64,000 nt of DNA. Source: an uncultured Pseudomonadota bacterium. GTDB lineage: Bacteria; Vulcanimicrobiota; Vulcanimicrobiia; Eremiobacterales; Eremiobacteraceae. The position numbers were made by a program, and so were the translations under genes. The stretch is taken from contig CAVTNB010000001.1 of assembly GCA_963736005.1 (NCBI GenBank), positions 32,001 to 96,000 of the forward strand, given 5' to 3'. How positions within the stretch are numbered: position 1 is the first letter of the stretch; the number at the start of each line of letters is the position of its first letter. Positions 13,362 to 59,281 of this stretch are shown here, in pieces. The notes beneath the pieces were generated by a model, which saw nothing but the letters and a program-made list of their open reading frames with translations, made no database searches and was not told the origin of the DNA.

Positions 13362-14732
13362 ATGCCGACCATCGCTTCGGAACGAGGCGCGAAGAAGCTC
13401 CCCCAGCGGTCCGTTGAAGGGGTCCAGGTAGCTCAAGAGATCGTGTGCCGCGTCTTCGCGGGCGTGCATGCCGGCATATCGGTCGTCCTTGCCGACGGCA
13501 CGGTTCTGCGCGAGCCGGATGAGCCTCTTGAGGCTACGATCGTCCTCAATCACCCAGCCGTCCTGCGAGCGCTGCTCAGACGAACCTCTGATCTCGGGGC
13601 CGGCGAAGCGGTCGCGCGCGGCGATCTCGACGTCGAGGGTGATATCGAGCGCGGACTCGCGGCGATGGACATCGTCGCCGATACGCGTACGCCCAAAGAG
13701 TGGATAGCGATCGCAGCGCTCGCGACGAAGCTGCCGGCGCCTCCACGCGAACCGGTGATCCGAGATGGCCGTCGCCCCGCGCGGCTTCGCGGTCGGGTAC
13801 ATTCGCTCCAGCGGGATCGCGAGGCGATCGCCTACCACTACGATGTCTCGAACGACTTCTATGCGCTGTGGCTCGATGAGAGTATGACGTACTCGTGCGC
13901 GTACTTCCAAGATCAGGCTGATACGCTCGACCGCGCGCAACGCAATAAGCACGACCTCATCTGCCGAAAACTCCGCCTCCGCAGCGGCGAGCGTCTGCTT
14001 GACGTTGGTTGTGGTTGGGGAGGCCTTGCGAGATTCGCGGCGCGAGAGTACGGCGTCAGCGTCGTTGGCGTCACCTTGAGCCGAAGGCAGGCCGAATACG
14101 CACAGGCTCGCAACGCCCGAGAAGGTCTCGAGCGGCGGTGTCGGATTGAGCTGCTGGATTATCGCGAGCTTGCCGCCCTTGGAGCGTTTAATAAAGCGGC
14201 GAGCGTCGGCATGGTCGAGCATGTGGGCGACGCCAACTTGGGCGAGTACTTCGACGCGGTGTTTTGTGCCCTCGTGCCCGGGGGACTCTTCCTCAATCAT
14301 GGCATCATCACGCAGCAGGCGAAAGCCACAGGCGTGCGAGCGTTTGCCGAGCGTTTTTTCCCGCGTCGGTCGCGTTTTACAGAAAGCTACGTGTTCCCCG
14401 ACGGTGAAATGCCTCACTTGCCCGTGATGGCTGAGGCTGCGCAACGCGCCGGCTTCGAACTGAGAGACGTCGAGAACCTCCGCGAACACTATGCGCAGAC
14501 GCTTCGTCATTGGGCACAGCGCCTTGCTGCGAGGGAGGCCGCAGCGCGATCTATCGTCGGTGACTCCACCTACAACGTCTGGCGCTTCTGGCTCGCAGGG
14601 TCTGCGCACAGCTTCGCAATAGGCCGCCTTGGGGTGGTGCAGATGCTGCTTGCAAAGTGGACGGCGGACGCGCGGGCGCATGTACCCGCGACACGCGCCG
14701 ACATCTACGCCGGCCCTCTCGCCGGAAAATAA
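13362..14732 (+). CDS. cfa: Cyclopropane-fatty-acyl-phospholipid synthase family SAM methyltransferase
   Basis: IAYHYDVSNDFY, MTYSCAYF, LLDVGCGWGG, SVGMVEHVG, HYAQTL motifs. Confidence 0.9.
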   Translation: MPTIASERGAKKLPQRSVEGVQVAQEIVCRVFAGVHAGISVVLADGTVLREPDEPLEATIVLNHPAVLRALLRRTSDLGAGEAVARGDLDVEGDIERGLAAMDIVADTRTPKEWIAIAALATKLPAPPREPVIRDGRRPARLRGRVHSLQRDREAIAYHYDVSNDFYALWLDESMTYSCAYFQDQADTLDRAQRNKHDLICRKLRLRSGERLLDVGCGWGGLARFAAREYGVSVVGVTLSRRQAEYAQARNAREGLERRCRIELLDYRELAALGAFNKAASVGMVEHVGDANLGEYFDAVFCALVPGGLFLNHGIITQQAKATGVRAFAERFFPRRSRFTESYVFPDGEMPHLPVMAEAAQRAGFELRDVENLREHYAQTLRHWAQRLAAREAAARSIVGDSTYNVWRFWLAGSAHSFAIGRLGVVQMLLAKWTADARAHVPATRADIYAGPLAGK

Positions 14733-14796
14733 CGACCGGTGGCGGGTCCGAGCTAGAGCGCAGTCGAAAGCCCTCGTCGCTATGGCTGCTGAAGTA

Positions 14797-16248
14797 ATGA
14801 AGACGCTGTTTTTGAATCCGCCGAGCTATGAGGGTTTTGACGGCGGGGCCGGCGCGCGCTACCAGGCGCGGCGTGAGATTCAAGTCGTTCTGGTATCCGA
14901 CTTGGCTGGCGCAGCCCGCCGCGATGGTTCCCGGCAGCCGGCTGATCGATGCGCCGCCCGATGGGCTTACCGTGGATCAAGTGGCTCCGCTGGCCAAGGA
15001 TTACGAACTGGCCGTGCTGCACACCAGCACGCCGTCGTTTCCCAACGACGCGAAATTTGCCGCGCACCTAAGGAAGTAGAATCCCAAGATCATGGTCGGC
15101 ATGGTCGGCGCGCACGTCGGCGTGCTGCCGCTGCAGTCCATGAACGCCGCGCCGGCGGTGGATTGGGTGGCGGTCGGCGAGTTCGATTATATCTGCGCGG
15201 ACATTGCCGCGCGCAAGCCGCTGCAAGGATGTTGGCGGCATCGCCTATCGCGATAACGGGCGCGTCGACGTTCACGCCGCCGCGGCCCACGATTGAGAAC
15301 ATGGATGAGCTGCCGTTCGTCGATGGACGTCTACAAGCGCGACCTGACGATTGAAAACTATTTCATCGGCTATTTGCAGCATCCCTACGTGTCGCTCTAT
15401 ACGGGGCGCGGATGCCGGTCGAAGTGCACGTTCTGCCTGTGGCCGCAGACGCTGGGCGGGCATCGCTATCGCGTGCGCAGCGCGGACAACGTGGCAGCGG
15501 AAATGGCGCTGGCGAAGAAATATTTCCCGCAGGTGCGCGAATTTTTCTTCGACGACGATACGTTCACCGACGATCTGCCGCGCGCCGAAGAAATCGCGCG
15601 GCGACTCGGGCAAGCTGGGCCTGACCTGGTCGTGCAACGCGAAGGCCAACGTGCCGCGCAAGACGCTCGAAATCATGAAGGACAACGGGCTGCGCCTGCT
15701 GCTGGTTGGCTACGAATCCGGGAACCAGCAGATTCTGATCAACATCAAGAAAGGCGTGCGCCTGGATATCGCGCGCGAGTTTTCGCGCAACGCGAAGGAA
15801 CTGGGAATCAAGATTCACGGCACGTTCATCCTCGGACTTCCCGGCGAGACGCCGGAGACGATCCGCGAGACCATCCGGTTTGCGTGCGACATCGATCCGG
15901 AAACGATTCAGGTTTCGCTCGCCGCGCCCTATCCGGGCACCGAACTCTACCGCCAGGCGCAGGAGCAGGGCTGGCTGCAGAATGCAGAGCGGCGAACTGG
16001 TGGATCACGCACGGCATTCAGACCGCGGCGATGAATTATCCGGGCCTGAGCTCGACGGTGATTTTCAATTCGCGTCGAGGAGTTTTACCGGAAGTTTTAT
16101 TTCCGCCCGCGCAAGATGTTCTCGCTGTTCGGCGGAATGCTGCGCGATCCGCGAAGTGATGAAGCGGCGGCTGCGCGAGGGCGTCGAATTCTTCAAGTTC
16201 CTGCGCGAACGAAAAGACGAGCGTCCGTCCGTGAAGCTGGGCGCGTAG
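14797..16248 (+). pseudogene. hpnJ: Hopanoid-associated radical SAM protein HpnJ, with multiple frameshifts
   Basis: MKTLFLNPPSYEGFDGGAGARYQ, SFWYPTWLAQPAA, GRGCRSKCTFC (CxxxCxxC), FFDDDTF. The pieces lie in all three frames, with an in-frame TAG at 15077. Confidence 0.85.
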
Positions 16249-16250
16249 CG

Positions 16251-17060
16251 CTACTCCGTGTAACCGAGCATGTAGATTCCAAGCGCCATAGCGAAAAAAG
16301 TCCACAGCGTCGCGCCCAGACGACCCTTTAAGATTCCCCCATCCGCCAGAAGTTTCGCCGCCGCAAATCCCAAGCCCACAACGGAAAACCACAGGTGCTC
16401 GTGCTTGACCTCGCTCATGGAGGCCATCAAGGTCTTCATAACGGGGTTGGAGGACATTGCCGCATTAGACATGTGCTGCATTAATTGTTGCGTTTCTGGT
16501 CCACCATGCTTGTGGAAGAAAAGGAAGATGGCGCCAAAAACCGCGAGGCTCGGAACAGCATAGACCCGCAGCAAGGGCGGCAGGCGGTCCGCCGCGCGAA
16601 GTAATTCGATAATCGCGAGCAACAGCAGGAGAAGCACAAAAGCGCGGTGCTGTTGCACCGAAGGGTCGGCAAAACTGATCCAAAACCCGTAGGGGCCATT
16701 CGGCCAAGTCTTCGGGTCGTTGCGCAGAACCAGGAATTCTACCAATCCGAACAACATGAGCGGCGGCACAAAACGTACCCATGTGCGGCGCGGCCACTGC
16801 AAACCGGCGAACAGCGCGGTCAATCCCCACAAGAACAGAAAAAAACCGGCGCCCCGGTGATTGAACACCGACCACTGTGTGCCCGAGACAGGCGTTGCCG
16901 GAAGCATCTCTGGGTTCTGCATGGTCTGGCTGGATTGCATGGTACCCATTGGCGTGGGAGTCGGCGTCGAGTCGCCCTTGGCGGCGGACAAAGAGAAATA
17001 TCCAAAAAAAATGCAGGGAAGTATGAGGGCGACCGTTATTACGCGACCGCATCGGATCAT
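16251..17060 (-). CDS. Multi-pass membrane protein with His residues at helix ends, function unknown
   Basis: Signal-like N-terminus, about 6 hydrophobic helices, NHRGAG/QQHRAF/FHKH/KHEHLW motifs, Met-rich loops. Confidence 0.7.
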   Translation of the reverse strand: MIRCGRVITVALILPCIFFGYFSLSAAKGDSTPTPTPMGTMQSSQTMQNPEMLPATPVSGTQWSVFNHRGAGFFLFLWGLTALFAGLQWPRRTWVRFVPPLMLFGLVEFLVLRNDPKTWPNGPYGFWISFADPSVQQHRAFVLLLLLLAIIELLRAADRLPPLLRVYAVPSLAVFGAIFLFFHKHGGPETQQLMQHMSNAAMSSNPVMKTLMASMSEVKHEHLWFSVVGLGFAAAKLLADGGILKGRLGATLWTFFAMALGIYMLGYTE

Positions 17061-17102
17061 CAGTGACTCCTTGATTAAGACGAAGCCGAGCTTGCCGTAC
17101 AG

Positions 17103-17828
17103 TTACTGTTGTGGAAATCCCTTTTCAGAACAGGTTTCGCAACCTTCGTGCGTCGGAGCAATACCTGGCAGGCGAACGGTAAAACTAGCCCCATGCGAGC
17201 TTGAGGCGGCAGCGGTGACCAAGCCGCCGTGCGCTTCGACGAGTTGCTTGACGATCGCGAGTCCGTAGCCCGAACCGTCGGTGTCAGCGCTCGCTAACCC
17301 TCGGACACCGGCTTCGAATACCTCGTTGACCTCGCTTTCGCGTATGCCCGGTCCGCTGTCGGAAATGCGGACCTGCAACTGATCGCCTGGGTGGTCGCAG
17401 TCCACAGACACGGTGCCGCCCCGCGGCGTGTAGCGGACGGCGTTGAGCAAAATATTTTTGACGATTTGCCCGATGCGGGCTGGGTCGCCGTAAAACTGCG
17501 CGCACCTCGCCGACGGCATCGCACAGCGATGAATGGAGACCTTTATGTCCTTGGCGCGCGCGACTGCCTCGATTGCGGCGTATTCGTGGTCGAGGAGCTC
17601 GCAGACGTTCATGAGGGTCGGGTGCAGCGACATCTGTACCTTTGGGCCAATGTCACCCAGGTCGTCGATAAGCGAATCGAGCTGGCTGAGCGCTTGAAGG
17701 ATGCCGAGCAGCCGCTCGGGAGTGGGAGCGAATTTGCCGTCGATGAGACCTTCCAGATTCGCCTTCGCCACTGCGAGCTCGTTGCGCATTTCGTGGATCA
17801 ATTCCGCGAGCTGTGTTGGTGCTTTCAT
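17103..17828 (-). CDS. Histidine kinase (HisKA plus HATPase) without TM or sensor domain
   Basis: HEMRNEL H-box, NILLNAVRY N-box, DSGPGI and GYGLAIV G-boxes. Confidence 0.9.
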   Translation of the reverse strand: MKAPTQLAELIHEMRNELAVAKANLEGLIDGKFAPTPERLLGILQALSQLDSLIDDLGDIGPKVQMSLHPTLMNVCELLDHEYAAIEAVARAKDIKVSIHRCAMPSARCAQFYGDPARIGQIVKNILLNAVRYTPRGGTVSVDCDHPGDQLQVRISDSGPGIRESEVNEVFEAGVRGLASADTDGSGYGLAIVKQLVEAHGGLVTAAASSSHGASFTVRLPGIAPTHEGCETCSEKGFPQQ

Positions 17829-17838
17829 CGTGTATCCC

Positions 17839-18579
17839 TCAAGCCTGCGGGTTCTTCGCCATCTTGTAGCCCACTCCAAACACCGTCAAGACGTACTTCG
17901 GATTCGCGGGTTCGACCTCGACTTTATGCCGCAGATTTGCGATGTGACGGTCAAGCGTGCGGTCAAACACTTCGAGATCATCTGCCCTGGTGGCATCGAG
18001 GAGTTGCGAGCGCGTGAAAGTCCGCCCAGGATGCGTGGCCAGGGCTTCGAGGATGCGAAATTCTGTTGGCGTCAGCGAAACTTCCTGACCGCCAATCCAC
18101 ACCTCATGGTTTTCGGGATCGATACGAAGGTCGCCGATGACGAGCAGCGGCGCGTTCTGTTGCCCCGCATTCGTCAGCGCGCTGTTATGCGTCGGGGGTG
18201 GCTGAGAGTTTCCGGAGCGCCGCAGGACGGCCTTGACTCGTGCGACCACTTCGCGCGGACTGAAGGGCTTGGTGATGTAGTCGTCAGCACCAAGCTCGAG
18301 ACCGATGATTCTATCGATCTCATCCGTCCGCGATGTGAGCATGAGAATCGGCGTATCAGCCTCGGCCCGCATGAGACGGAACACATCGAGGCCCGACATT
18401 TCCGGCAGCTTGAGATCCAAGATCACGAGGTCCGGCCGGTGCGAATTGAACGTTTCCACTGCCTGGCTTCCGTCATGGGCCTTGCTGACAATGAACCCCT
18501 CGTCGGTGAGATACCGTTCCAGCACCTCGACGATCTTGGGTTCATCGTCCACCAGGAGTATTTTTTTAGCCTCGGCCAC
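17839..18579 (-). CDS. OmpR/PhoB-family response regulator
   Basis: LLVDDE, LDLKLP, GADDYITKPF and winged helix ending TVFGVGY. Confidence 0.95.
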   Translation of the reverse strand: MAEAKKILLVDDEPKIVEVLERYLTDEGFIVSKAHDGSQAVETFNSHRPDLVILDLKLPEMSGLDVFRLMRAEADTPILMLTSRTDEIDRIIGLELGADDYITKPFSPREVVARVKAVLRRSGNSQPPPTHNSALTNAGQQNAPLLVIGDLRIDPENHEVWIGGQEVSLTPTEFRILEALATHPGRTFTRSQLLDATRADDLEVFDRTLDRHIANLRHKVEVEPANPKYVLTVFGVGYKMAKNPQA

Positions 18580-18614
18580 GAGTGTTCATTCGTGGCCGAG
18601 GACGGGTTCCACTA

Positions 18615-19778
18615 CTAGTGCAGCGCACCAATCGTCGTGGCGTACCATAGCTGGCCCTGAAACGTCGGAGTTGCCCCTTGATTCAGAGATGCCTGGAGGT
18701 TGAAGATCAAGCCGTTGGCGTTTCTGTCGGTGACGTGATGATTCACAAACCACACGGCGTTGACGTAGTTATAGTGCGTTGAGGTTCCCAGCCCATCGTT
18801 CGTATACTCGTTGCGATAGGATAGGATCACCTGATTGTTCAGCACCGGTTCCCAGGCTTCCGCGGTATAGGCCGTTGACGTCGCGGCTCCTAAACCAGCG
18901 CCAGCGTGGCCATCATAGCCGCGCTGGTAGACAACCAGTGCGCCAGGGAATCCCCGGGTAGGATCCACTTCGGCATAACCCGCCGCGCCGTTGTAGCGGT
19001 CGATTTGTCCATCGGAAGTTTGAAACGTTCCGGTGCCGCCATAAGCGCCGATCTCAACCGGTTTGTATCCTTGCGCGTCGACCACTCGCCATTGGACGGT
19101 TTTTTCGGTGCTCGAACTCCAATCAAGCGCGCCGTTGGTACCACCAATGTCTCCGCTGGGTCCCAGATAACCAATTTCGGCTGTCAACCAGTCATGCGTG
19201 TACGCGAGCTTGCTTCCCCATCGATTGGTGGAGAAGGGCCACACGTGCTCTCCAACGGTGATCGCCGGCGTATTGAATGCCGCTAGGTCGAAGAACTGAC
19301 TGTATGGCGACGGTGCTGGCGCTTCGATCTTGCCGACAAACAAGTGGCCATCACGATGCAACAGATTGTTGTACGTCACCCACATCGTATCGTAGAAGCC
19401 GGAGCCGTCGTGCGATTGGATCCAGCCATGGAAGTGATAGGTCCAATCATCGCCGATGTAGCCAGCCCCGTGCACCGAGAGGTTACCCCATATAAGTGAA
19501 TGCGGTTCCGTCGGATCTCCGGTATCGTAGGTTACCTGCTCGCCGACCCAGATCGGCATAGCGTGGCGGATCGTTGCGGAATCCAGCGACGCGTACCCGG
19601 TTCGTTGGACGTAACGGCCATAGGCGTTTAGCGCGGGGACGACGGTATGGCAGACCTGGCAATCCATACCGTACGCCTGCGCAAAAGGCGGCATAGCCTG
19701 GGTGGGCCGCACCGCCTCAATCACCCAGGTTAGCGCGAAGAGCCAGGCGATCAGAATGGTCGCGCGCCGGAACTTCAT
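18615..19778 (-). CDS. Cyc2-like outer-membrane monoheme cytochrome c-porin fusion
   Basis: Signal peptide, then MPPFAQAYGMDCQVCHTVVPALNAYGRYVQRTGY (Cyc2-type heme motif), followed by amphipathic aromatic-rich beta strands. Confidence 0.75.
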   Translation of the reverse strand: MKFRRATILIAWLFALTWVIEAVRPTQAMPPFAQAYGMDCQVCHTVVPALNAYGRYVQRTGYASLDSATIRHAMPIWVGEQVTYDTGDPTEPHSLIWGNLSVHGAGYIGDDWTYHFHGWIQSHDGSGFYDTMWVTYNNLLHRDGHLFVGKIEAPAPSPYSQFFDLAAFNTPAITVGEHVWPFSTNRWGSKLAYTHDWLTAEIGYLGPSGDIGGTNGALDWSSSTEKTVQWRVVDAQGYKPVEIGAYGGTGTFQTSDGQIDRYNGAAGYAEVDPTRGFPGALVVYQRGYDGHAGAGLGAATSTAYTAEAWEPVLNNQVILSYRNEYTNDGLGTSTHYNYVNAVWFVNHHVTDRNANGLIFNLQASLNQGATPTFQGQLWYATTIGALH

Positions 19779-20140
19779 GGCGTGACAACAACGGTCAGCG
19801 TCATATCAGCATGACCGGGCCCACACACCACCGCGCAATGCAGAACGTACGTTCCGGGCTTGGTTGGCGTGAAGGTAACGAGCTCAAAGCCGCTCGGGGA
19901 GATGGTCGTTTTTGCAATGCCAAGATCGTTTGACTCAAGACCATGGACCCCGGATGAAGAAGTCAGACGAAGCGTGGTCGGCTCGTTGACGGGGATGGTA
20001 ATCTTCGCCGGGGTAAACTTCCAATTCGATGCCACAATGTCGATGGTTGGATGCGCAAGTGCTATGCTCGCAGCGACCACCACCACACCGACGCTCGCGA
20101 CGAGCGCCCAGATAACCTTATGAAATGCTCGATTCGTCAT
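19775..20140 (-). CDS. Exported cupredoxin with CuA-type ligand set
   Basis: Signal peptide, VHG...CAVVCGPGHADM (H...CxxxCxxxHxxM), AAGGAG RBS. Confidence 0.85.
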   Translation of the reverse strand: MTNRAFHKVIWALVASVGVVVVAASIALAHPTIDIVASNWKFTPAKITIPVNEPTTLRLTSSSGVHGLESNDLGIAKTTISPSGFELVTFTPTKPGTYVLHCAVVCGPGHADMTLTVVVTP

Positions 20141-20227
20141 TTTCCGGTATCTCCTTATAGTCATTAACTTAACGAACGTTCTTGATAAAAGTGTCGGCCC
20201 AAGCATGCCATAAGGCGGTCCAGGGGG

Positions 20228-20244
20228 TGTGAATTGGATATGAA
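20228..20244 (-). promoter_or_regulatory. Candidate OmpR/PhoB-type direct-repeat box
   Basis: TTCATA-N5-TTCACA (11-bp period) upstream of the cupredoxin gene. Confidence 0.35.
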
Positions 20245-20273
20245 GGCACGAGAAAAGTCGCCGTTCCTTCACA

Positions 20274-21905
20274 TCACCACGTTCTCATACCTGGCGCGCC
20301 GTAGGGATGGGCGGCGATGAGGTCGTGGACCGGGCCGGCATAGGCAAGGAACGCGAACACCACGGCAACCACGGCCCAGACGCCAATTCGATCCAGGAGG
20401 GGAGAGGTTACGAGCGCCTCGGGTTCGACCGTTGCGAAAACGATGGGATCTGTCTCCGTCTTTGGCGTGAAGAGCGTGCCCACGGCCACTGCGACAAACA
20501 TCAGAATACTCAAGAACAGAATGGAACCGCCGATTGCGGCCCAGTGCATTTCGGGCATCCACGCGGCCGCAGTGGTCGAGCCAAAGTAACTGACCTCATC
20601 CGTGCGTCGAGGCGATCCCAAGATGCCGGCCCAGTGCATGGCAGTCGACATGATCATCATGCCGATGAACCACGCATACGTTTGCGCAAGCGCCAAGCCC
20701 GGCGCCCATAACTTGCGCCCGGTGAGCCGTGGGATCAGCCAGTACGACACCCCGAGAAAAGACAATGCCACTGGACCACCCACCGTCACGTGAAAATGCC
20801 CGACAATCCACATCGTGTTATGCACGATCGTGTCCATGGCGTACGACGCGTTGATCACCCCGCCGAGACCGCCAAAAATGAAGAGCAGCATCCCTAAGGC
20901 AGGGCCGCTGAACGCGGGGTTCTTCCACGGCAGCCAAGCGATCGTCGCAAAGAATCCTTTGACGCCGCCACGCTGGGCTGCGAGTTCGAACGACGCGAAC
21001 ACGGCAAAGGCAGTGAGAATCGACGGGATGACGACGCCATAGGTCGTCATGGTGTGCACCCACTTCCAGTCTGAGGAGATTCCCGGCTCCATGAACTCGT
21101 GGTGCAGACCAACCGGCGTTGACAGCAAGAGCAGAAGAATGAACGTGAGTCTGGTCAATGAATCGCTAAAAACTCTTCCGTTGTAGAGTCGGGGCACGAT
21201 GTTGTACCAGATCAAATACGCACCCATGATCCAGAAGTAGACGAGCGGATGTCCAAAATACCAAAACAGCATGCGCGTGAACATAACGTTCACGGTTGGC
21301 ACCAAGTTGAGCGACCACGGGATGAGGAAAAAGAGCATCTCCGCCGCGACGCCTAGCGTTGCGATGAACCACATCACAAATGTGGTCACCGAACCATGAA
21401 CCACCAGCGGCAGTCGCTCGCCTGGGTGATTTCGCCCAAACCATAACGCATTGCCAGCCAGATCGATGAGCACGATCCAGGTTCCAACGACAAGCAGCGT
21501 GGCGCCGATATAAAACCACGGGCTGGCCTTCAGTGGGGCGTAAAAGGTGTAGAGTACGCTGGCGCTGCCGGAGAGAATCGCGATGGCAGCCATCGCGGAG
21601 CCAATGGCCATGACCCAAAAGGCGAGCCACCCGATGGTGAGGGAGCGGTTGCGCGGGATGGCGCGGTACACCATGAGCGTTGCGAGACCGCAGATGAAGA
21701 ACGTGGTGAAGACAATAGCGTTGAGCACGCCGTGGGCCGTGAGCATGCGATAATAGTCAAACCAGGAGGGCAGACGCAGCCAACTCGCCCGCGAGAGCGC
21801 TTGGAACAAGCCGAAGCTCGCGCCGACCATAAGGGCGATCGTCGCAAAGTAGATGTGGGCGATAATAAGCCGATTCTCACGTTGTACGAGCGGCTGATCC
21901 ATCAT
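20274..21905 (-). CDS. cbaA: ba3-type (family B) heme-copper oxidase subunit I
   Basis: YYRMLTAHGVLNA, FWYFGHPLVY, GLHHEF, HNTMWIVGHFH motifs. Confidence 0.92.
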   Translation of the reverse strand: MMDQPLVQRENRLIIAHIYFATIALMVGASFGLFQALSRASWLRLPSWFDYYRMLTAHGVLNAIVFTTFFICGLATLMVYRAIPRNRSLTIGWLAFWVMAIGSAMAAIAILSGSASVLYTFYAPLKASPWFYIGATLLVVGTWIVLIDLAGNALWFGRNHPGERLPLVVHGSVTTFVMWFIATLGVAAEMLFFLIPWSLNLVPTVNVMFTRMLFWYFGHPLVYFWIMGAYLIWYNIVPRLYNGRVFSDSLTRLTFILLLLLSTPVGLHHEFMEPGISSDWKWVHTMTTYGVVIPSILTAFAVFASFELAAQRGGVKGFFATIAWLPWKNPAFSGPALGMLLFIFGGLGGVINASYAMDTIVHNTMWIVGHFHVTVGGPVALSFLGVSYWLIPRLTGRKLWAPGLALAQTYAWFIGMMIMSTAMHWAGILGSPRRTDEVSYFGSTTAAAWMPEMHWAAIGGSILFLSILMFVAVAVGTLFTPKTETDPIVFATVEPEALVTSPLLDRIGVWAVVAVVFAFLAYAGPVHDLIAAHPYGAPGMRTW

Positions 21906-22363
21906 TGCACCGCGACCGAGCCGTACATGAAATGATGCCCCGCGCCACAGTATTCATTGCAGAGCAACAAATACGTGCCAGCCGTGCGGAACGTATGCGT
22001 CGCTTCACTGACCCATCCCGGAATCACCATGAGGTTGACCGCAGTGTTCGGGATAAAGAATCCATGCACGACATCCGGACTCGTCGCATAAAACGTCACC
22101 GTCGAGCCGACGGGAACCGCGATCGTTGACGGTTGGAATGAAAAGATGTGCGCGATCACATAGTCGTCGTATTGGTGCGCGCCCGTTTGGTGCAGGCCAG
22201 GCTTGTCAAAAGGCGCTGTCTGAGCCACTTTCGTTGGATCGATAATCTGCATGTGGCTCGGCGGTGCGATGTCGTCGTGCAAGGCCGCGACCCCCATGAT
22301 GCCCAGAAAAACCACCAGCGTGACGATGCCAAAAATCATCCACGCGCGCTCTGATTTGTGCAT
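21902..22363 (-). CDS. cbaB: ba3-type oxidase subunit II (CuA)
   Basis: Single TM helix, DVVHGF, CNEYCGAGHHFM. Confidence 0.92.
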   Translation of the reverse strand: MHKSERAWMIFGIVTLVVFLGIMGVAALHDDIAPPSHMQIIDPTKVAQTAPFDKPGLHQTGAHQYDDYVIAHIFSFQPSTIAVPVGSTVTFYATSPDVVHGFFIPNTAVNLMVIPGWVSEATHTFRTAGTYLLLCNEYCGAGHHFMYGSVAVQ

Positions 22364-22375
22364 GCTTCTCCCGGC

Positions 22376-22501
22376 CTACCAGCGTTGCAGCAGCAAGTGG
22401 AACATAAGCAACCAGACGATCACAAGCGCGGCGCCCAGAATGCTGACAAACTTGATTGTGGCCGGCAATGAAAATTGACCCGGCTCCGGGGTATTTTTCA
22501 T
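22376..22501 (-). CDS. cbaD: ba3-type oxidase small subunit IIa (41 aa, absent from the ORF track)
   Basis: MKNTPEPGQFSLPATIKFVSILGAALVIVWLLMFHLLLQRW; a single TM helix directly upstream of cbaB. Confidence 0.7.
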   Translation of the reverse strand: MKNTPEPGQFSLPATIKFVSILGAALVIVWLLMFHLLLQRW

Positions 22502-22504
22502 GCT

Positions 22505-23014
22505 CTAGATAATAGTCCGCTGGATTTCGCGCTCCTCTTTTCTGACATAGCTCGTCTGTTTATGGGGATGCTCAGCCGGTGCGGCATGGCAGACAAGCAC
22601 CGGAATGTGCGAGCGGCGCAAGATGCCTTCTGCGACGCTGCCGAGGAATGCCCGCGGGATGCCGCTTCTGCCATGACTGCCGATGACGATGAGATCCGCA
22701 TTGCGCTGACGCGCCAATTGGAGCACGGAAGAAACGCACTCGTCCTCGGGCTGCTCAAAAGATGCTTGGACATTGGCTTTTTCGGCCCAAGCTCGAGCAT
22801 CGTCTAAGATAGCGCTCCCAGCTTTGCACGCCGCGTCGATTGCCAAACCTGGATCTATCCCCCCCGGTCCGGTCATTGCGACCACTTTGTTTAACTCCAC
22901 AGCATGGACGAAAACAACCTCTGCCCTATTCTCACGCGCAATTCGCAGCGCGAGTTCAATAGCGGCGTCCGAGGGTTTCGATCCGTCAATCGGCACGAGT
23001 ATCTTGCTAAACAT
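22505..23014 (-). CDS. Universal stress protein (UspA family)
   Basis: KILVPIDGS...ADLIVIGSHGRSG...LGSVAEGILR...PVLV. Confidence 0.92.
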   Translation of the reverse strand: MFSKILVPIDGSKPSDAAIELALRIARENRAEVVFVHAVELNKVVAMTGPGGIDPGLAIDAACKAGSAILDDARAWAEKANVQASFEQPEDECVSSVLQLARQRNADLIVIGSHGRSGIPRAFLGSVAEGILRRSHIPVLVCHAAPAEHPHKQTSYVRKEEREIQRTII

Positions 23015-23152
23015 GGCGTTCCTCGCTCTCCAGAACACATAACTTCGTATCGCGTGGCTTTAGTATGCGTCCCACATATCCAGATCGAGCGAACGAGAGA
23101 TGAAGAAGGACGATTTCGAAGGGCGGAACGGTCAAGGCGGGTCTTGATTTTC

Positions 23153-23179
23153 CACTTACTTTGTGGTACAAAGTAAGTG
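23153..23179. promoter_or_regulatory. Perfect 12-bp inverted repeat, operator-like
   Basis: CACTTACTTTGT-GGT-ACAAAGTAAGTG overlapping the start of the downstream gene. Confidence 0.6.
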
Positions 23180-23479
23180 ATGTTCGACCGCAATCGTGGA
23201 CAGAAAATCCACCGTGTCAGCGGCGTGGTACTCATCGTCCTTTCGCTGATAGCATTGCTCTGCGTCCTTCCCTGGGGCGGCTTTGGGCCGCCTCAACCGG
23301 ATGAGGGCCCGCCGGCACATATTTTTCAGCTGTCAATCGTAGCGCTCGTACCGACAATCTTGCTCTTCCTGACGACGCTGGATTGGAAGCAGCCGCTACG
23401 AAGTATGCGACCGTTGATATTTGCTGGCGCCGCTTTAGTTCTCGCGTTTAGCATCCTGTATCACGTTGAGCATCCTTGA
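23177..23479 (+). CDS. Small three-TM membrane protein
   Basis: Hydrophobic helices around PQPDEGPPAHIFQL. Confidence 0.7.
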   Translation: MMFDRNRGQKIHRVSGVVLIVLSLIALLCVLPWGGFGPPQPDEGPPAHIFQLSIVALVPTILLFLTTLDWKQPLRSMRPLIFAGAALVLAFSILYHVEHP

Positions 23480-26284: not shown

Positions 26285-27205
26285 ATGAGCACGCCTCAGG
26301 CGGGTATCTTCGCGTTAGGCGATCCGTCGCATAGCTTCATGGAACTCACCCTGCATAGCGACGCGTCAGCGAGTAACGCAGTTCGGGCAGTCGCAGATCT
26401 GCACGATCCCCGGAAGACCATCGAGGGTGTCAATCTCGTGGTCGGTTTTCGGCCCGAGTTATGGCGAAAGGTTGCCCCCGGCGATACGCCAGCTGATACG
26501 AAAGGCTTCGATCAGGCTATCGTGGGTTTCGACGGCTACACGATGCCAGCAACGCAAGCTGATATTTTCCTCTGGATTGCGGGCGCAGCTTACGATAACG
26601 TTTTCGACGTCGGGACCGCCATCGTCCAACGCCTCGGTTTGTTCTCGACGCTCGTACGCGAAGTCACCGGTTGGACATATCAACACAATCGCGATCTCAC
26701 TGGCTTTCAGGACGGAACCGAGAATCCCGATCTTGTCGCGGCGCCGGACGTTGTCCTCATCCCTGAAGGCGAACCGGGGGCCGGTGGAAGCATTGTGCTC
26801 GTTCAGCAATGGAAGCACAAGAGCGAGATATGGTTTGCACTTGAGGTCAGTGAGCAAGAGCGCGTCATCGGCCGAACGAAGGCCGACAGCATCGAATTCC
26901 CTGAAGATCGCATGCCGGCTGACTCACACGTGACGCGTACGACGCTGGTAGAGAATGGAGAAGAGCTCAAGATCTTTCGTCGCAACATGCCTTATGGCGG
27001 AGTTGGCGATCACGGCACGGTCTTCGTAGGCTTTGCCAAGCAGCAGCACCGCCTACAGCGAATGCTCGAACGCATGGCGGGCATCGGAGACGGAGTGCGC
27101 GATGGGCTTACACTTTACACGGTTCCGCTCAGCGGCTCGTACTATTTTGTACCGGCACTCTCAACACTTGCGACCCTAGCCACACCCGTTCTTGCATCAT
27201 CCTAA
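26285..27205 (+). CDS. Dyp-type peroxidase
   Basis: RDLTGFQDGTENP (GxxDG), SHV, IFRRNMPYG motifs. Confidence 0.92.
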   Translation: MSTPQAGIFALGDPSHSFMELTLHSDASASNAVRAVADLHDPRKTIEGVNLVVGFRPELWRKVAPGDTPADTKGFDQAIVGFDGYTMPATQADIFLWIAGAAYDNVFDVGTAIVQRLGLFSTLVREVTGWTYQHNRDLTGFQDGTENPDLVAAPDVVLIPEGEPGAGGSIVLVQQWKHKSEIWFALEVSEQERVIGRTKADSIEFPEDRMPADSHVTRTTLVENGEELKIFRRNMPYGGVGDHGTVFVGFAKQQHRLQRMLERMAGIGDGVRDGLTLYTVPLSGSYYFVPALSTLATLATPVLASS

Positions 27206-27317: not shown

Positions 27318-30300
27318 CTACAGACTAATCTTCGCCGTGAAGACCGCCTGCAGGGGCGATAGGAGCGGGTTTGGTTGGTACGGGAACTCGACCATTGGCT
27401 GGAACGTCGAGCCCGGATTGTAGATGTTCGCACCGTATTTCAGCGGTGCGCCGTAGCCTGGTAGATTGTAACCGCCTGAGCCAGTGGCTGAACCTCCACC
27501 CGCGCAACTCTTCGGCGCGCCAACTGTCCATGGTTCGGCGCTTCCGCCGAAGCAGGTATTGACAATGTTGGCCACATTCATCGCAAATGAGATGCGCGAC
27601 GAGGCTTGGTACGAGAGCTGGGCATGTAATAGTAGTTGGTTGGGCTGATGGAATGCACCGATACTGTCGAAGACGTGCGTGTAGGGATCGGGTATCGCAA
27701 CGGTACCTGTGCACTGGGTCGCATCGAAGGGCGTGCCCGTGCCACCGTATGGATAGCGCGGATCGCCGCTCACCGATGATGTAAGACCTGCCGGACAATC
27801 GGCGGGGTTGACGCCGTAGCCGCTCAGTGGGTCGCCGTAGTTGCCTCCCGACAGGAATTGCAACTGCGGCGAGATGGCCCATCTGTTGACCTTGTAGTTG
27901 AGCACGAGCGCGATTGTGTTCGGCACTTCGTACCCGTTTGCGGCGGCTTCAATGCCGCCTGGAATTGTGGCGAACGGGACGTAGCTTGCGCTCGGATCGA
28001 GTCGCGCTTGCACCGGTGCATTGAAATACGGGTTCGCCACGCCAGACGCTTCTGTCGCGATGGCGTTGGTTCCACCGAACGTTCCGCACAAGCTCGTCGT
28101 GCTCGAGTTGGCTGCGACACCTTGGCAGGCTTTTGTGAACGAGTTGTACTGCTGGATCGCGATATTGATCGTGTCGAGCACCGTACCACCCGTGCCAAGA
28201 GGTTTGAACTTGATGGTGCTGTGGTTGTACGTGTAGGCGAGCAACGCGGACAAGCCGTTTTGATTGAAGTTCCCCAAGTTGAGCTGGAACTCCACGCCGT
28301 CGGACGTCTGCTGACCAACGTTGAGGCCTGACACGAAGTTCGTCTTTTGGTTGAGGTAGAAGTTCTGGATCTGGTTCTGGGTGGTCCGGTAGTACGGCGT
28401 CAGCTTAAAGCTGGCTTGCGTCCCCTGGAACTGGTGTTCCCATGACAGATCGTAGTTGTCCGACGTCGGCGGGTAGATCGTATGCGTCGTCGTCGTGAAG
28501 CCGATCGGCCAGAAGTTGTTGGCCAGATAGGCGGGCAGGTCTTGTTGTAGCAAATTGTACTGTTCGAACGCGGTGTTGGGTGCCTGATCGTACCGGCCGG
28601 CGCTAAAGCGGAACACGTTGTCTTGGTTCGCCGTGAACGTCGCGCCGAGACGCGGCTGGAAAACCCAGAACCTCTCCGTGTCGTTCGGCAGGTTCGTCAT
28701 GGTCGCAGGCGTCGATTGAACTCCGTTGACCAGCGGACATGCTTGACCCACTCCGGCGTCGTTTGCGCTATTGTAGAACGGCACTTGACCGCCGCCAGGC
28801 AATACGCAATACGAGTTGTTCCATGCGTTGAACCAGAACGGGCGGGCGAGCGTCGCTGGAGACCCCGCAACCGCGTTCGTATCTGATAGTCCGTAGAAGA
28901 ACCTATCGTACCGAAGGCCGAGGTTGATAAACCATTGGCTGCTCGGTTTGATCTGGTCAGTCACAACGAACGATCCGAAGTTCGGCTGCGCGGAGTTGCC
29001 GCCACCGTAGCGGCCGTTCTCCGCTACCCACCACTCGCACGGTCCCGACCCGCATGACGCGGGAAGCGCAGGCAGTGGGGCGCCAGCGTGTGCCGCTGCC
29101 AAACCGAGCGCCAACGCGTTTGCCGAGTAGCAGCTTACCGCTGCGCCTGCAGCATTGTAGCAGATACCAGCACTTGGATTCTTCGCATTCACCGCGTATG
29201 CAAATGAATCGGCTCCGGTGTTCGGGTTGAGTCCGACCAGCTCGTTGATCATTGTCTCGTCGTTCGCACGATAGTCGATCGCGGCGAAGTCGGAGAGCTG
29301 GACGGTCAAGAGGTTCTTGTCGTTCAGCTGATCGCCGTATTGCATGCTGCCGCCGTTCGTGTTCGTCTTCACGTAATAGTTGAACGGGCAGTAGCCGATG
29401 AAGTTTGACGCCAGTGTGATGGGGCACGTCTGAGGCCATTCCGAGTAGTTTGAGAAGCCATAGATCGCGGAAGTACGCTTGGGAGCCGAAGTTGTGTTGA
29501 TACTGCAGTTTGAGAATGTTGTTTGGGTTGGCTGTTCCATCACGCTGGTTAAAGGGGATGGTCAACAAGCCGGTGCCGATGCTATTCGGGTTATACGCGA
29601 AGTAGACCGGTTCGTCATTTGCCTGTAGTCTGCCACAAGTGGTTCGCCCACAGAGCCAAGGTACTGAAAGCCTAACCCAAGACTGCCCGAAAGATAGGGA
29701 AACGCCGGCGCTCCGAATGCCGCCTGATAAGCCGGATTCGAGAATCCCCAGTCTGAGGACGAGCTATAGTAGAATTGGTTGAGATACGAAGTGTCGTAGA
29801 GCAACTGGATGTCGTCTTTGCCCGCGTCATTTCTGTGCGGGATGCCAAAGTGCAAGTTGATGACGTTCTCTCGGTCGTAGGAACTTGCCACGGTGTTCGC
29901 GTCGCCGCTATCCTGCGGAGGACCTAGCAGGTATCCACCAGGACCGATACCCGTCGCATAGCACGACGCGAAGTTCTGTTGCACAGCCAACGAAGCGGTC
30001 GCGCAACCTCCGGCCGGCGTGAGTTTTGCGAACGGTGCACCCCACTCGGATTGAAGGCTCGCGCCGTTGTTCTGATCAACAAACCTGAAGCCTTGGGCAG
30101 TATTTGTGCTCGCAACGTAATACGAGAAGTTGCGGTCAGGCGTCGCCCCGCCTACCTCGAAATTGTAGCCGTTATACAGGGTCGGCGTGCCGATGCCCAT
30201 GCTGAGCGTCGAGAATCCGGGATACGTTCCAGACTTAATGACCTGGTTGATATATCCCGATAGACCTTGGCCTTGCGCGTCTGCAGGCGCGGCCCCCGTA

Positions 30301-30974
30301 TAGACCTGGAGCTCCTGCTGGCCAAGCGTGTTGGCCGTGGTAGTCGGATAGTTGTCATACGAACGCAGCACAGGAACACCATCAAACTCGTAGCCGACTT
30401 GGTCGTAGTCTCCGCCTCGGATGTGGATGGTTTGGAACCATCCGTTCTGACCCGGAGAGACCGAGACGCCGGGCGTAGCCGCCAGCGCGGAATACGCTTG
30501 GTTGAGGCTTCCGCCGCCACCGAGCGAGGCGATTTTGGCTGAGGTCGCCGAGTTCACCGAGTACACGTCGGCGGTCGTGCCAGGCTTGACGAGCTCGCCC
30601 GCGGCCCGGGTGGTCACCACGCCAAGAGTCTTCACACTCGTTTGCATCGTGATGGTGACCGTTCGGGTGTTGTCCGCGAGGACCGTGATCCCAGCCTGGC
30701 TGACGGATTCGTAGCCATCTTTGGTCGCGGTTAACGTGTATGTGTCTGGGACTAGCGAGACAAACGCGAAGTGACCGCGTGCATCCGTGTCTGACGTAGC
30801 AGTTTGTGAGGTCGCGGAAGCGGTGACTTTGGCGCCCGCGACTGGCGCGCCTGATTGAACGACCACATAGCCGGTCAGCGCACCGGTCGTTCCTGCGAGT
30901 GTCCCTGTTGCCTGCGCAGAAATGACCAGCAGCGCGATGAGCGCCATGCGGAGGATCATTCTGTTCATTGACAT
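27318..30974 (-). CDS. TonB-dependent receptor, paralog of 9814-13272; two frameshifts (about 29615 and 29468)
   Basis: Shared motifs IRGGDYDQVGYEFDGVPV, LKLQYQHN and SFKLTPYYR are spread over three ORFs. Confidence 0.85.
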
Positions 30975-33714: not shown

Positions 33715-34506
33715 TACCTTCTCGACACATTTGCGTGGTGTAGCATAACAGACGGACATCCGCGGACGGAAGCCAATAGGGCGCGCATGTAGTGGTCGTG
33801 CTGACCAGGGCAGGCGATTCCAATCTTGTCAAAATCGTGGATAACCATGGGTTAAGCTGGGTACCATGAGCCCGAGGCCTCCAGGGAAACCTATGTCTTG
33901 GGGCCTCAACAGTGAGGTGAGCCGCCGGGCTCTTAGTTCCTCAAAACCAACAGGTTCAGGGTGGCAGCGTCTACGGCGAGATTAATCATGCAACTTCAAG
34001 TCGTCGAATTTACGGCGTATAGATCCTTACGCAGTCGCTGGCGATGGTGGTATCGGCCATGAGTTCTGAACTCGCATCCGACGAACGCCCGAAAGACCAG
34101 AAAGGTCCGAATCCGATGTAGCTTTGGGTAGGTCGATCGAATGATTATTGGAGTGAAGAACAACTTCAGAGTAGGGCAAGCGTCAGTGTCGTCAGGCCTG
34201 TCAGATCTTCCTATCGGGCTTGCTAAGTCTGACGGCTCTGACAGGTCTGACGGGCAGCAGAAGGTCGCAGGATAATTTTGCGCCGCCAGTTTCGGGTGAG
34301 GGCGTTCAAGGCCGGCGTCCGAGCTGACGATGCCAGTGCAAAGCAAAACTCCTGGTGCTTGGCGTCGGCCGGGAGGACGGGTGGGATAGCGCCTGTGACT
34401 TGCTGTGCGATGCGTCGCAGGAGTGCCGGTACTTAGCCGCGTGTGTACATAGCCACGTCAATGGTGCATTACGGCGGGAAGGTTCGCCGTTCCACCTGGT
34501 TGAAAT

Positions 34507-34524
34507 TGTCAACCATGGTTAACA
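34507..34524. promoter_or_regulatory. Candidate MntR/DtxR-family operator
   Basis: TGTCAACCATGGTTAACA, an 18-bp palindrome with 1 mismatch, touching the regulator start codon. Confidence 0.5.
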
Positions 34525-35204
34525 TGGCTAGCGATCGTTCCCCCGAACGCGCTCGCGAGGATTACGTCAAGGCGATTTATCAGTTGAGCGAGCGGAGTTC
34601 GGTACGCAGCGTGGAGCTGGCGCGTCACCTGGGAGTAACGCGCGCGTCGGTCAGCAAGTTTAAGCGGATGCTGGAGCGCGAGCATCTGCTCGAGCCGTCA
34701 AGCGGTCGGACGGGCCCGCTGGTTTTGACGAGGAAGGGGCGACAACTGGCGGTGCGGATGGTCCGGCGGCACCGCTTGGTTGAAACGTTCTTGCACACTA
34801 CCCTGCATGTGCCGCTCGAACGCGTGCATTCGGAGGCGGAGCGCATCGAACACGCGATTTCCGATGATGTGTCGGGGCGTTTGGCGCGCTTTTTACACAA
34901 CCCGGTCTCCGATCCACATGGCCACAGAATCCCCGGCGGCTCCGCGCATCCCCGCGGAGACGAGAGAATCCTCGCCTCCCTCGAGGCAACGCAGAAGGTC
35001 GTCGTCAGTAGCGTTGGAGACCGCGACGAAAACATTGTCCGTCGCCTCGCGGCCCTCGGCGTCCTCCCCGGCCTTTACGGCGAGATCGTAGGGAAAGACT
35101 CCGTTGGTGTGCACCTCAGGTGCAAGAAACGAGTGATCACGTTGCCGCTCGAAACGGCAGCCGACGTGCGATGTCGCCTGCTGTCGCGACGGAAGGCCGC
35201 GTAA
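34524..35204 (+). CDS. mntR: DtxR/MntR-family metal-dependent repressor with FeoA-like domain
   Basis: EDYVKAIY, RRHRLVETFL, EAERIEHAIS, DPHGHRIP motifs. Confidence 0.9.
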   Translation: MASDRSPERAREDYVKAIYQLSERSSVRSVELARHLGVTRASVSKFKRMLEREHLLEPSSGRTGPLVLTRKGRQLAVRMVRRHRLVETFLHTTLHVPLERVHSEAERIEHAISDDVSGRLARFLHNPVSDPHGHRIPGGSAHPRGDERILASLEATQKVVVSSVGDRDENIVRRLAALGVLPGLYGEIVGKDSVGVHLRCKKRVITLPLETAADVRCRLLSRRKAA

Positions 35205-35206
35205 AC

Positions 35207-36535
35207 ATGCCGGCGCTGGGCGTAGATGCCATCCTTGACCCGAGTTCGTCCAGCGAGCGTACGAGGCGCGCGGCTCGCCAAGTGCTCGAAGGGCGGCGAA
35301 AAGGCTGGAGCGCGTTGCTTCCCTTTGCGGGGCCCGCTTTCATCGCCTCGATCGCGTACATGGATCCCGGCAACTTCGCGACCAACGTGCAAGGCGGGTC
35401 GTTATTCGGTTATAATCTGCTCTGGGTGGTGGTGTTCGCCAACCTCACCGCGATGCTGTTCCAAGCAATGTCGGCCAAGCTCGGTATTGTCACCGGCAAG
35501 AACCTGCCGGAGGTGTGCCGCGACAGCTTTTCGAGGCCGGTTTCACTGAGTATGTGGGCAGTCAGCGAAATCGCCGCCATGGCCACCGACCTAGCGGAAT
35601 TCTTAGGAGCGACCATTGGCCTCGCATTGCTCTTCAATTTACCCTTGCTTGTGGGCGCGATCATTACTGGAATCGTTACGTACGCAATCTTGATCATGCA
35701 GAATCGAGGCTTTCGCAAGATTGAGGTGCTGATTATCGCGTTTGTCGGCGTTATTTTGCTTTGCTACGTCGTCGAGACCATTTTGGCTCGCCCGAATTGG
35801 GGATTGATCGCCTACCATTCGCTTGTGCCTTGGCTCGGAGGCCCGGACTCAATCATCTTGGCTGTCGGAATCATTGGCGCAACCGTGATGCCTCACGCGA
35901 TTTATCTTCATTCCAGCCTGACTCAGGATCGCATCGTCCCGCGAAGCAGAGTTGAGGCCAAAACGGTCGTGCGGTTTTCGAACATCGACGTTCTCATCGC
36001 GCTTGGGATTGCCGGCGTCATCAATATGGCGATGATGTACATGTCGGCAGCAGTGTTTCATTTTGGCGGTCACCCGGAAGTAGCCAGCATTCAGTCCGCA
36101 TATAAGACCTTAGTGCCCCTGTTGGGCTCGGCAGCCGCCGCCATCTTTTTGCTCTCCCTTATGGCGTCGGGCATATCCAGTTCGGTCGTGGGAACCATGG
36201 CAGGCCAGGTGATCATGCAGGGATTCGTGGGATTTTCCATCCCGCTATGGTTGCGGCGTGTCGTCACCATGATTCCGACGGTCGTGGTTATCGGTCTTGG
36301 GGTTAACACGACGCAGGCGCTGGTCATCAGTCAAGTGGTGCTCAGTCTAGTACTGCCGTTGCCGGTCATCGTTTTGCTAGTCTTCACCGGCAAGCGCTCG
36401 ATCATGGGCGACCTGGTCAACAAACCGCTTGCGAAGTTTCTTGGAATTGCTGCAGCAACGGTCGTAATCGGGCTGAATTTCGTGCTCCTGTGGCAAACCA
36501 TCGGTTTGCCGATGCCCAAATTCCTAGGCGGTTGA
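35207..36535 (+). CDS. mntH: Nramp Mn2+/Fe2+ transporter
   Basis: AYMDPGN and GATVMPHAIYLHS signatures. Confidence 0.95.
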   Translation: MPALGVDAILDPSSSSERTRRAARQVLEGRRKGWSALLPFAGPAFIASIAYMDPGNFATNVQGGSLFGYNLLWVVVFANLTAMLFQAMSAKLGIVTGKNLPEVCRDSFSRPVSLSMWAVSEIAAMATDLAEFLGATIGLALLFNLPLLVGAIITGIVTYAILIMQNRGFRKIEVLIIAFVGVILLCYVVETILARPNWGLIAYHSLVPWLGGPDSIILAVGIIGATVMPHAIYLHSSLTQDRIVPRSRVEAKTVVRFSNIDVLIALGIAGVINMAMMYMSAAVFHFGGHPEVASIQSAYKTLVPLLGSAAAAIFLLSLMASGISSSVVGTMAGQVIMQGFVGFSIPLWLRRVVTMIPTVVVIGLGVNTTQALVISQVVLSLVLPLPVIVLLVFTGKRSIMGDLVNKPLAKFLGIAAATVVIGLNFVLLWQTIGLPMPKFLGG

Positions 36536-49207: not shown

Positions 49208-49456
49208 TCAAGACTCAGCGTGGTCCCTACTCAAGCGATCGTGCTCGACGCGATTTTGAGTTGAGGCGCGGCGCACGCTATCCGCAAGAAGAATCGCGAG
49301 ACCCATGAACAGAACAATCGGGCGCACGCTGGCGTTGGCGACGTGTGGGAGCACGAACCACACGAGCAACAACCAGACGCAGATCGATAGCGACAATGCA
49401 CCGTCTTCAACGAACAGTCCGTAGATCTGTCTCGATACGCTCGTGAACCAGGTCAT
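49208..49456 (-). CDS. Small membrane protein
   Basis: GLFVEDGAL, two TM helices, coupled to the upstream gene by a 4-bp overlap. Confidence 0.7.
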   Translation of the reverse strand: MTWFTSVSRQIYGLFVEDGALSLSICVWLLLVWFVLPHVANASVRPIVLFMGLAILLADSVRRASTQNRVEHDRLSRDHAES

Positions 49457-53234: not shown

Positions 53235-53254
53235 GCGAGCAAAGAGAGCTACAC

Positions 53255-55811: not shown

Positions 55812-55835
55812 GGCCAGCATCGGCCGGATTGGAGG

Positions 55836-59278: not shown

Positions 59279-59281
59279 CGG

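Follow-up and report, generated by a model that had tools for sequence, protein, structure and literature searches.

We analyzed a cluster of nine genes at positions 16251–23014 of a 64,000-nucleotide stretch of DNA (the window hereafter; contig CAVTNB010000001.1, positions 32,001 to 96,000, assembly GCA_963736005.1). Its host belongs to the Vulcanimicrobiota (Eremiobacterota), as do the named homologs of the porin that it encodes. The cluster brings together a Cyc2-like cytochrome-porin, a free CuA cupredoxin, a ba3-type oxygen reductase and a two-component system, in which a preliminary description had seen a candidate chain for electron uptake from the outer membrane to oxygen. All nine co-oriented minus-strand open reading frames of that description were found at the positions it had given, and with one internal repeat they comprise the following features:

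22505..23014, minus strand: usp, universal stress protein (Pfam Usp, E 7e-29)
22376..22501, minus strand: cbaD, 41-residue single-helix protein, likely ba3 subunit IIa (open reading frame; position, size and one hydrophobic segment)
21902..22363, minus strand: cbaB, CuA-containing subunit II of a B-family oxidase (Pfam COX2, E 2e-10; CNEYCGAGHHFM motif present)
20274..21905, minus strand: cbaA, subunit I of a B-family (ba3-type) heme-copper O2 reductase (matches ba3-type chains; Pfam COX1)
20228..20247, minus strand: direct repeat of 11-bp period, putative response-regulator box of an internal promoter, in the 133-bp gap
19775..20140, minus strand: stand-alone periplasmic CuA cupredoxin, 121 residues, with a predicted cleavable signal peptide (PDB CuA domains, E 5e-9; Pfam Cupredoxin_1/COX2)
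18615..19778, minus strand: Cyc2-like monoheme cytochrome fused to a 16-strand porin, 387 residues (AlphaFold2 model, OprP match, hhalign)
17839..18579, minus strand: OmpR/PhoB-family response regulator (Pfam Response_reg and Trans_reg_C)
17103..17828, minus strand: cytoplasmic histidine kinase, no sensor or membrane domain (Pfam HATPase_c)
16251..17060, minus strand: membrane protein, family not assigned, peripheral to the cluster (open reading frame)

From usp to the membrane-protein gene the junctions measure 3, 12, −4, 133, −4, 35, 10 and 42 bp. Seven of them fit the short gaps and overlaps described earlier, including the 4 bp by which the 3′ end of the cupredoxin gene overlaps the porin start, but cbaA and the cupredoxin gene are separated by 133 bp containing a conserved direct repeat. 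A 17.9-kb contig from another public run spans positions 16075–23300 in the same gene order with ∼96% identity (295 other letters, 6 gaps), and the cluster is therefore not an assembly chimera. Among the public runs listed as carrying the sequence, none was of RNA. For synteny we compared 80 loci from 77 genomes with 83 porin genes, none of them from unpublished genomes; these are the top-ranked matches on long contigs and not a random sample. The last gene had been described as encoding a histidine-rich protein, which is incorrect (7 His among 269 residues). Its product matches only unnamed Atlas clusters and no Pfam or NCBIfam family, and the gene recurs in 1 of the 80 loci. We treat it as peripheral, and it probably lies outside the conserved module. 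The cbaD assignment holds as far as size, position and the one hydrophobic helix are concerned, but the protein has no PDB match and a tblastn match in just 1 of the 80 loci. Homologs of usp are common neighbors in the relatives, in variable placement. The locus is a real, conserved module of a divergent Cyc2-like porin and a stand-alone or fused CuA protein, in which ba3 is optional.

The porin has no Pfam or NCBIfam match, and a search with its sequence against the PDB returned nothing below E 0.5. The AlphaFold2 model (119 homologs, pLDDT 89.9) shows 16 barrel strands preceded by a small heme domain at the N terminus, in agreement with the β-barrel and heme previously proposed. OprP (PDB ID 2o4v) is the best structural match (Z 24.5, rmsd 3.5, 291 aligned), other 16-strand porins follow closely, and OprO (4rjw) is among the Foldseek matches. 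A hydrophobic segment at residues 5–23, predicted to be a signal peptide, is followed by a single CXXCH, whose C40, C43 and H44 are invariant in 119/119 homologs. P48 and L50, which form the PXL motif behind it, are also invariant, and the length of 387 residues exceeds the 365-residue Cyc2 minimum. The predicted mature protein begins with M29, which, like H115, H145, H178, D130, D260 and D289, is invariant in 119/119 homologs; this methionine and the invariant His and Asp residues are candidates for a distal heme ligand and a metal site.

Cyc2 is defined as a CxxCH domain joined to a 16-strand OprO/OprP-like barrel, and the motif AXPXFAR[Q/K][T/Y] was used to filter sequences for the reference Cyc2 tree (PMC8406198; here and below, papers are cited for the sections available). 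The N-terminal motif that had drawn attention to the porin (AMPPFAQAYG..CQVCH) is present in its sequence. AMPPFAQAY fits the Cyc2 motif in A, P, F, A, Y and in spacing, but not in R and Q/K. The reading FAQAY is found in 96 of 120 porin homologs, and some plasmid-borne Cyc2-like references likewise depart from the strict motif. As this motif was the filter, the clade of the window's porin was probably excluded from the reference tree. Profile comparison with hhalign bears out the homology to Cyc2-like proteins (probability 95.6, E 1.1e-8, 233 columns, ∼18% identity), the references being seven plasmid proteins judged Cyc2-like by motif and context, none of which is a characterized enzyme. Judged by these profiles, the porin is remotely homologous to Cyc2-like proteins.

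The second element of the module's conserved core is the cupredoxin. It has a complete CuA ligand set (H66, C102, C106, H110 and M113) and finds CuA domains as its best PDB matches, and its earlier description as a CuA protein stands. The five ligands are invariant in 67/67 aligned sequences, although four of them, all except H66, served to select this set. The backbone-ligand position is occupied by I or V in 62/66 sequences, not by E or Q. No part of the cupredoxin alignment is conserved strongly enough to scan a sequence collection with it. A small CuA-motif cupredoxin gene ends directly upstream of 66 of the 83 porin genes, or 67 with L061, where the motif is kept and the start codon is absent; in an overlapping set of 80 named loci, 76 have an upstream CuA gene. 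Among the 16 porin genes without one, two carry a C-terminal CuA fusion, two a fused cytochrome c, eight lie near a triheme cytochrome c and one adjoins a small cytochrome c; for three we saw no carrier gene. Genes for the triheme cytochrome c (three c-type repeats, e.g. L086:9991–11037) are located near 19 of the 83 porin genes, in some loci beside CuA and in others in its place.

C-terminal CuA fusions to the barrel are present in P0122, L084 and L089, and C-terminal cytochrome c fusions in P0121, P0125 (nearly the same protein as L088), P0136, P0141, P0148, P0162, P0168, P0184, L069 and L088. In a wider search, in which 16 long matches were scanned, we found a seven-member porin-CuA cluster (P0122) and seven porin-cytochrome c fusions. 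The fused-CuA and fused-cytochrome forms are sisters in a quick tree. Both barrel termini of Cyc2 are expected to be periplasmic (PMC13692758), and the fusions would thus set an interchangeable one-electron carrier beside the heme. That the periplasmic carrier is interchangeable follows from CuA being fused in some relatives and cytochrome c fused or adjacent in others. Together with the adjacency in 66 of 83 cases, the fusions confirm the porin-CuA linkage as conserved, and they are the strongest evidence for electron transfer by the porin-carrier pair. A complex prediction for porin, heme and cupredoxin scored 0.27 (mark 0.32), and a single-sequence fold of the fused protein P0122 had a pLDDT of 34.

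A second, distant Cyc2-like paralog of the host (C1:936872, in G000:C1:936334–938026; L131:8335–10027) shares 36% identity with the porin over the first 89 residues only. Upstream of it lies a gene for a type-1 cupredoxin that looks like a lipoprotein, an arrangement found in 14/14 loci (2 from unpublished genomes). Carrier diversity is also apparent around plasmid Cyc2-like genes from Burkholderiales, Methylocystis, Polymorphobacter and Acidithiobacillus (L219–L223, L137): genes for c-type cytochromes lie no more than ∼2 kb away, joined in one case by a gene for a HiPIP. In L059, L062, L066 and L092, two cupredoxin-porin or carrier-porin units follow each other in tandem, and their porins are divergent. 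In L093 (6499–11975) a carrier-less porin gene lies between genes that we read by eye as mutS and mutL, and housekeeping genes related to these neighbors recur in ∼10/80 loci.

The oxidase genes encode a B-family enzyme, as had been proposed. Over residues 15–543, CbaA aligns with chains of ba3-type cytochrome c oxidases (E about 1e-118); it retains six histidines (H58, H219, H268, H269, H370 and H372), the H219-x3-Y223 pair, and residues Y230, Y234, S247, S295 and T298 of the K-channel region, which are identical to those in the ba3 chain; the CuA subunit II is present as well. The active-site tyrosine separates O2 from NO reductases (PMC11214002), and by these criteria the cbaA product is an O2 reductase. 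Elsewhere in the host genome (G000:C1:1509195–1512272; L132:6196–9273), a small multicopper oxidase or NirK-like gene stands with two further genes, one for a CuA-type subunit II and the other for a subunit I of the heme-copper kind with H-S-I-A-N at the place where O2 reductases have His-x3-Tyr. The latter is a tyrosine-less, sNOR-like NO-reductase candidate.

The proposed linkage of porin and oxidase holds for the window's own family, where ba3 genes are found in 16/19 loci, but overall for only 30 of the 83 porin genes and, outside that family, for 14 of 64 (within the fetched stretch of up to ∼9 kb on each side of the porin). We also tallied 120 near-complete genomes of the class; these genome tallies, including those for ccsA, ba3, the second paralog and the porin matches across the phylum, contain up to nine genomes marked unpublished. 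Full-length porin (match E 1e-60 or better) is present in 76/120. Porin and ba3 occur together in 54 genomes, porin only in 22, ba3 only in 11 and neither in 33; no significance test is given because kin genomes are not independent. Among 45 genomes in which both positions are listed, the two lie within 25 kb of each other in 25. The linkage of ba3 to the porin is real but optional.

At a threshold of E 1e-5 the porin has matches in 316 of 401 genomes of the phylum, nearly all from three families of one class, a tally that also counts weak N-terminal matches to other paralogs. Some homologs come from records whose titles name Binatus, Acidiferrales, Rhodospirillales or Dormibacteraeota (L169, L216, L217; P0290); these may be submitter labels or mis-binned contigs. 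The host genome (2.84 Mb, 84% complete) contains three heme-copper oxidase subunit I genes and a heme A synthase gene. The heme c attachment gene ccsA was not found in it. We considered a lack of heme-c maturation and rejected it: resB is truncated at a contig end (C2) and ccsA is present in 120/120 near-complete class members, which leaves no doubt about heme attachment.

Upstream of the cupredoxin start, a direct repeat of 11-bp period (CTTCNCA-N4-YTTC type) occurs in 22 of the 47 regions, out of 67, that could be anchored, compared with a mean of 2.5 and a maximum of 7 in shuffles; the motif was picked after seeing the data. Direct repeats are typical of OmpR/PhoB regulators. The window's copy (20228–20247) scores highest of the four intergenic gene-upstream matches listed, the window having been in the training set, and a scan of the genome with the repeat revealed no convincing regulon. 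A palindrome search upstream of the cupredoxin gene found nothing, and σ70 and terminator scans remained at chance level. Close orthologs of the response regulator are present in 32/80 loci and of the kinase in 20/80. The kinase lacks a hydrophobic segment and has a C-terminal CxxC; its cysteines 76, 102, 109 and 144 are kept in 18/21 aligned orthologs, the three exceptions being truncated. This conservation suggests that the kinase may sense thiols or metal. Recurrent neighbors of the porin loci include Usp, HSP20 and PNPOx-like genes, a neighborhood that suggests low-oxygen stress. A cluster of proteins with no Pfam match, represented by a 166-residue protein at L041:3146–3646, occurs in 31/80 porin loci, often in several copies.

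Elsewhere in the window we noted several metal and redox genes, namely those for a DtxR-type repressor with NRAMP (34443–36535), an OFeT-like permease (49453–50223), a hemerythrin domain (53027–53770), a DyP peroxidase (26285–27205) and a molybdopterin oxidoreductase with a flavin reductase (58673–60022). Several window genes are split between frames, namely those for a TonB-dependent receptor (27318–30974), a radical SAM enzyme (14629–16159) and, as read by eye, a PAS/GGDEF/EAL protein (40947–43345) and an amino-acid permease (54256–55951). These splits are probably assembly indel errors.

Taken together, we favor with modest confidence a reading in which porin and CuA protein form a conduit from the outer membrane to the periplasm that passes electrons inward to O2 at low oxygen. 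A dissolved reductant would enter the barrel, whose fold we have modeled, and reduce the N-terminal heme c; the donor would most likely be Fe(II) or its organic complexes, and possibly reduced humics. From the heme, electrons would pass to the soluble CuA protein, or to cytochrome c in the carrier-swapping relatives, as the near-constant adjacency and the fusions suggest. The CuA protein would then deliver them to a CuA-bearing terminal oxidase, here the adjoining high-affinity ba3, to which the partial linkage points. The proton-motive force gained may supplement the energy supply of a heterotroph. The response regulator would bind the repeat before the cupredoxin gene, under control of the cysteine-bearing cytoplasmic kinase. 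Fe(II) specifically as donor is plausible, although we give it less than even odds. The potential of CuA lies near +250 mV. For the Fe(II)/Fe(III) couple, values of 770 mV at pH 2 and ∼0 mV at pH 7 are given (PMC8406198). Set against these values, CuA would fit Fe(II) at mildly acidic to neutral pH, Fe(II) in organic complexes and reduced humics, and would not fit iron at pH 2 or Mn(II). A lineage-wide system of electron uptake in the Vulcanimicrobiia, in which a divergent Cyc2 feeds a dedicated CuA shuttle (free or barrel-tethered) and this in turn a high-affinity ba3, is conceivable, and we advance it with reserve.

Several observations weigh against the favored reading of inward electron flow. 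The strict Cyc2 motif is matched by 0/120 homologs, and Keffer et al. caution that distant Cyc2 homologs have uncertain function (PMC8406198). The porin family occurs in most of a class of heterotrophic soil bacteria, a broader range than one would expect from iron-rich habitats. RuBisCO and NiFe hydrogenase were not found in the 84%-complete host genome, which leaves autotrophic iron oxidation unsupported. No ba3 match is present in 22 of the 76 genomes with full-length porin, and of the 45 genomes with listed positions ba3 and porin are far apart in 7 and on different contigs in 13. Finally, gene context gives no direction of electron flow.

We consider it unlikely that the same conduit runs outward. 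In that case, complex III would load CuA under O2 limitation, and CuA would feed either ba3 or the porin heme, through which surplus electrons would reduce Fe(III) or humics outside the cell. In relatives the pair has Usp, HSP20 and PNPOx-like genes around it, together with genes that we took by eye for phosphoketolase and acetate kinase; this low-oxygen-like context would suit outward flow, as would the heterotrophic appearance of the host and a Cyc2-like gene on a plasmid of Acidiphilium cryptum, which is an Fe(III) reducer. At its potential, however, CuA would be suited only to acceptors of high potential, Fe(III) at low pH for example, and co-orientation with an O2 reductase is more simply explained by uptake; moreover, characterized Cyc2 homologs are described as Fe(II) oxidases in the literature examined.

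A role in metal acquisition appears improbable. Here the heme-porin would reduce or gate Cu (or Fe), and the cupredoxin would carry or store copper for oxidase assembly when ba3 is induced. The invariant or near-invariant barrel residues H103, H115, H145, H178, D130, D260, D272 and D289 are compatible with such a role, the mature cupredoxin begins with His in 45/67 sequences, a feature reminiscent of CopC, and the Cys-rich kinase could sense metal. The cupredoxin has a complete CuA ligand set, however, and no Cop, Sco or FTR1-type gene was recognized by eye among the 45 most recurrent neighbor clusters, not all of which were scanned. Cytochrome c takes the place of the cupredoxin in the same fused position, which argues for electron rather than copper transfer. 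Equally little speaks, in our estimate, for separate units in which porin and CuA perform an unrelated redox task and the ba3 neighbor shares only low-oxygen regulation. The pair does have its own upstream repeat, and many genomes have ba3 away from the porin or not at all; the orientation of ba3 also varies. Against this stand the tight tandem of cbaB, cbaA, CuA and porin genes in most of the window's family, the recurrence of ba3 linkage in several clades that lie apart in the quick tree and a skewed co-occurrence, kin not being independent.

Neutrophilic Cyc2 proteins are described as lacking an identified partner in the periplasm (PMC13692758). Here a partner for a Cyc2-like protein is named by gene fusions and by near-constant adjacency, and the two offer a chain of two proteins that could be reconstituted; were electron uptake true, those fusions would have revealed which periplasmic protein natively accepts electrons from a Cyc2-type protein. 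CuA usually occurs within an oxidase or N2O reductase, and a respiratory shuttle consisting of a free CuA protein is out of the ordinary. With electron uptake, the Vulcanimicrobiia (Eremiobacteria), which abound in acidic soils and in peat, would be overlooked microaerobic oxidizers of Fe(II) or reduced humics, and an energy source so far unrecognized would be added for a common class of soil bacteria. If the clade does not take up electrons, the module clearly exemplifies a Cyc2 homolog that does something else, with consequences for the use of cyc2 as an iron-oxidation marker.

Contrary to the preliminary description, the lineage is not without precedent, as Cyc2-like genes and predicted Fe oxidation in Eremiobacterota have been published: one metagenome-assembled genome with a Cyc2-like gene (PMC8357290) and Baltobacteraceae genomes with predicted iron oxidation (PMC13594681). 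These reports concern the same phylum and propose Fe(II) oxidation from gene presence; their available sections describe no partner protein, operon, fusion or class-wide survey. A term search of the supplementary Cyc2 tree of PMC8357290 gave no cluster for the Eremiobacterota sequences, and the available text on a cultured representative (PMC9758169) makes no mention of iron oxidation. B-family oxidases in Eremiobacterota have been tied to phototrophs, and an outer membrane is reported for the phylum (PMC6664022). The literature searched, which omits most subscription papers, yielded no account of a CuA partner, of the fusions or of the spread through the class, and searches on cyc2 with cupredoxin, ba3 or CuA, on Vulcanimicrobi- with porin and on soluble CuA carriers returned nothing on the module. 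The Cyc2 proteins of Ca. Manganitrophaceae and Nitrospirales belong to organisms not known as iron oxidizers, for which another donor is proposed, but phylum and partners differ from those of the window module (PMC9040806). In the module described here, Mn(II) oxidation via CuA looks unfavorable.

With the Cyc2 family (A. ferrooxidans Cyc2, Cyc2 PV-1, Cyt572; PMC8406198), the window's porin shares a signal peptide, a single N-terminal CxxCH, the PxL motif, a 16-strand OprO/OprP-like barrel, a length above 365 residues and profile homology reaching ∼240 residues into the barrel. It differs in its AMPxFAQAY motif, in the invariant Met at the predicted mature N terminus and in being shorter, and its clade has a CuA partner rather than c4, rusticyanin or Cyt579 as well as C-terminal carrier fusions. 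The oxidase resembles the Thermus-type ba3 (cbaDBA; PDB ID 1ehk) from end to end in subunit I, in the Tyr and K-channel residues, in the CuA subunit II and in the small upstream subunit, but has a free CuA protein encoded alongside; the native donor of Thermus ba3 is cytochrome c552. The Acidithiobacillus rus operon (cyc2-cyc1-cup-coxBACD-rus; PMC10654088) likewise joins a cytochrome-porin, a copper protein and a heme-copper oxidase. Unlike it, the window cluster contains neither cytochrome c4 (cyc1) nor rusticyanin, has a B-family ba3 instead of an aa3 oxidase and a carrier with a dinuclear CuA motif, is attached to a two-component system and belongs to a host in which carbon fixation was not found. 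The window module resembles the rus chain in outline and is not a rus operon.

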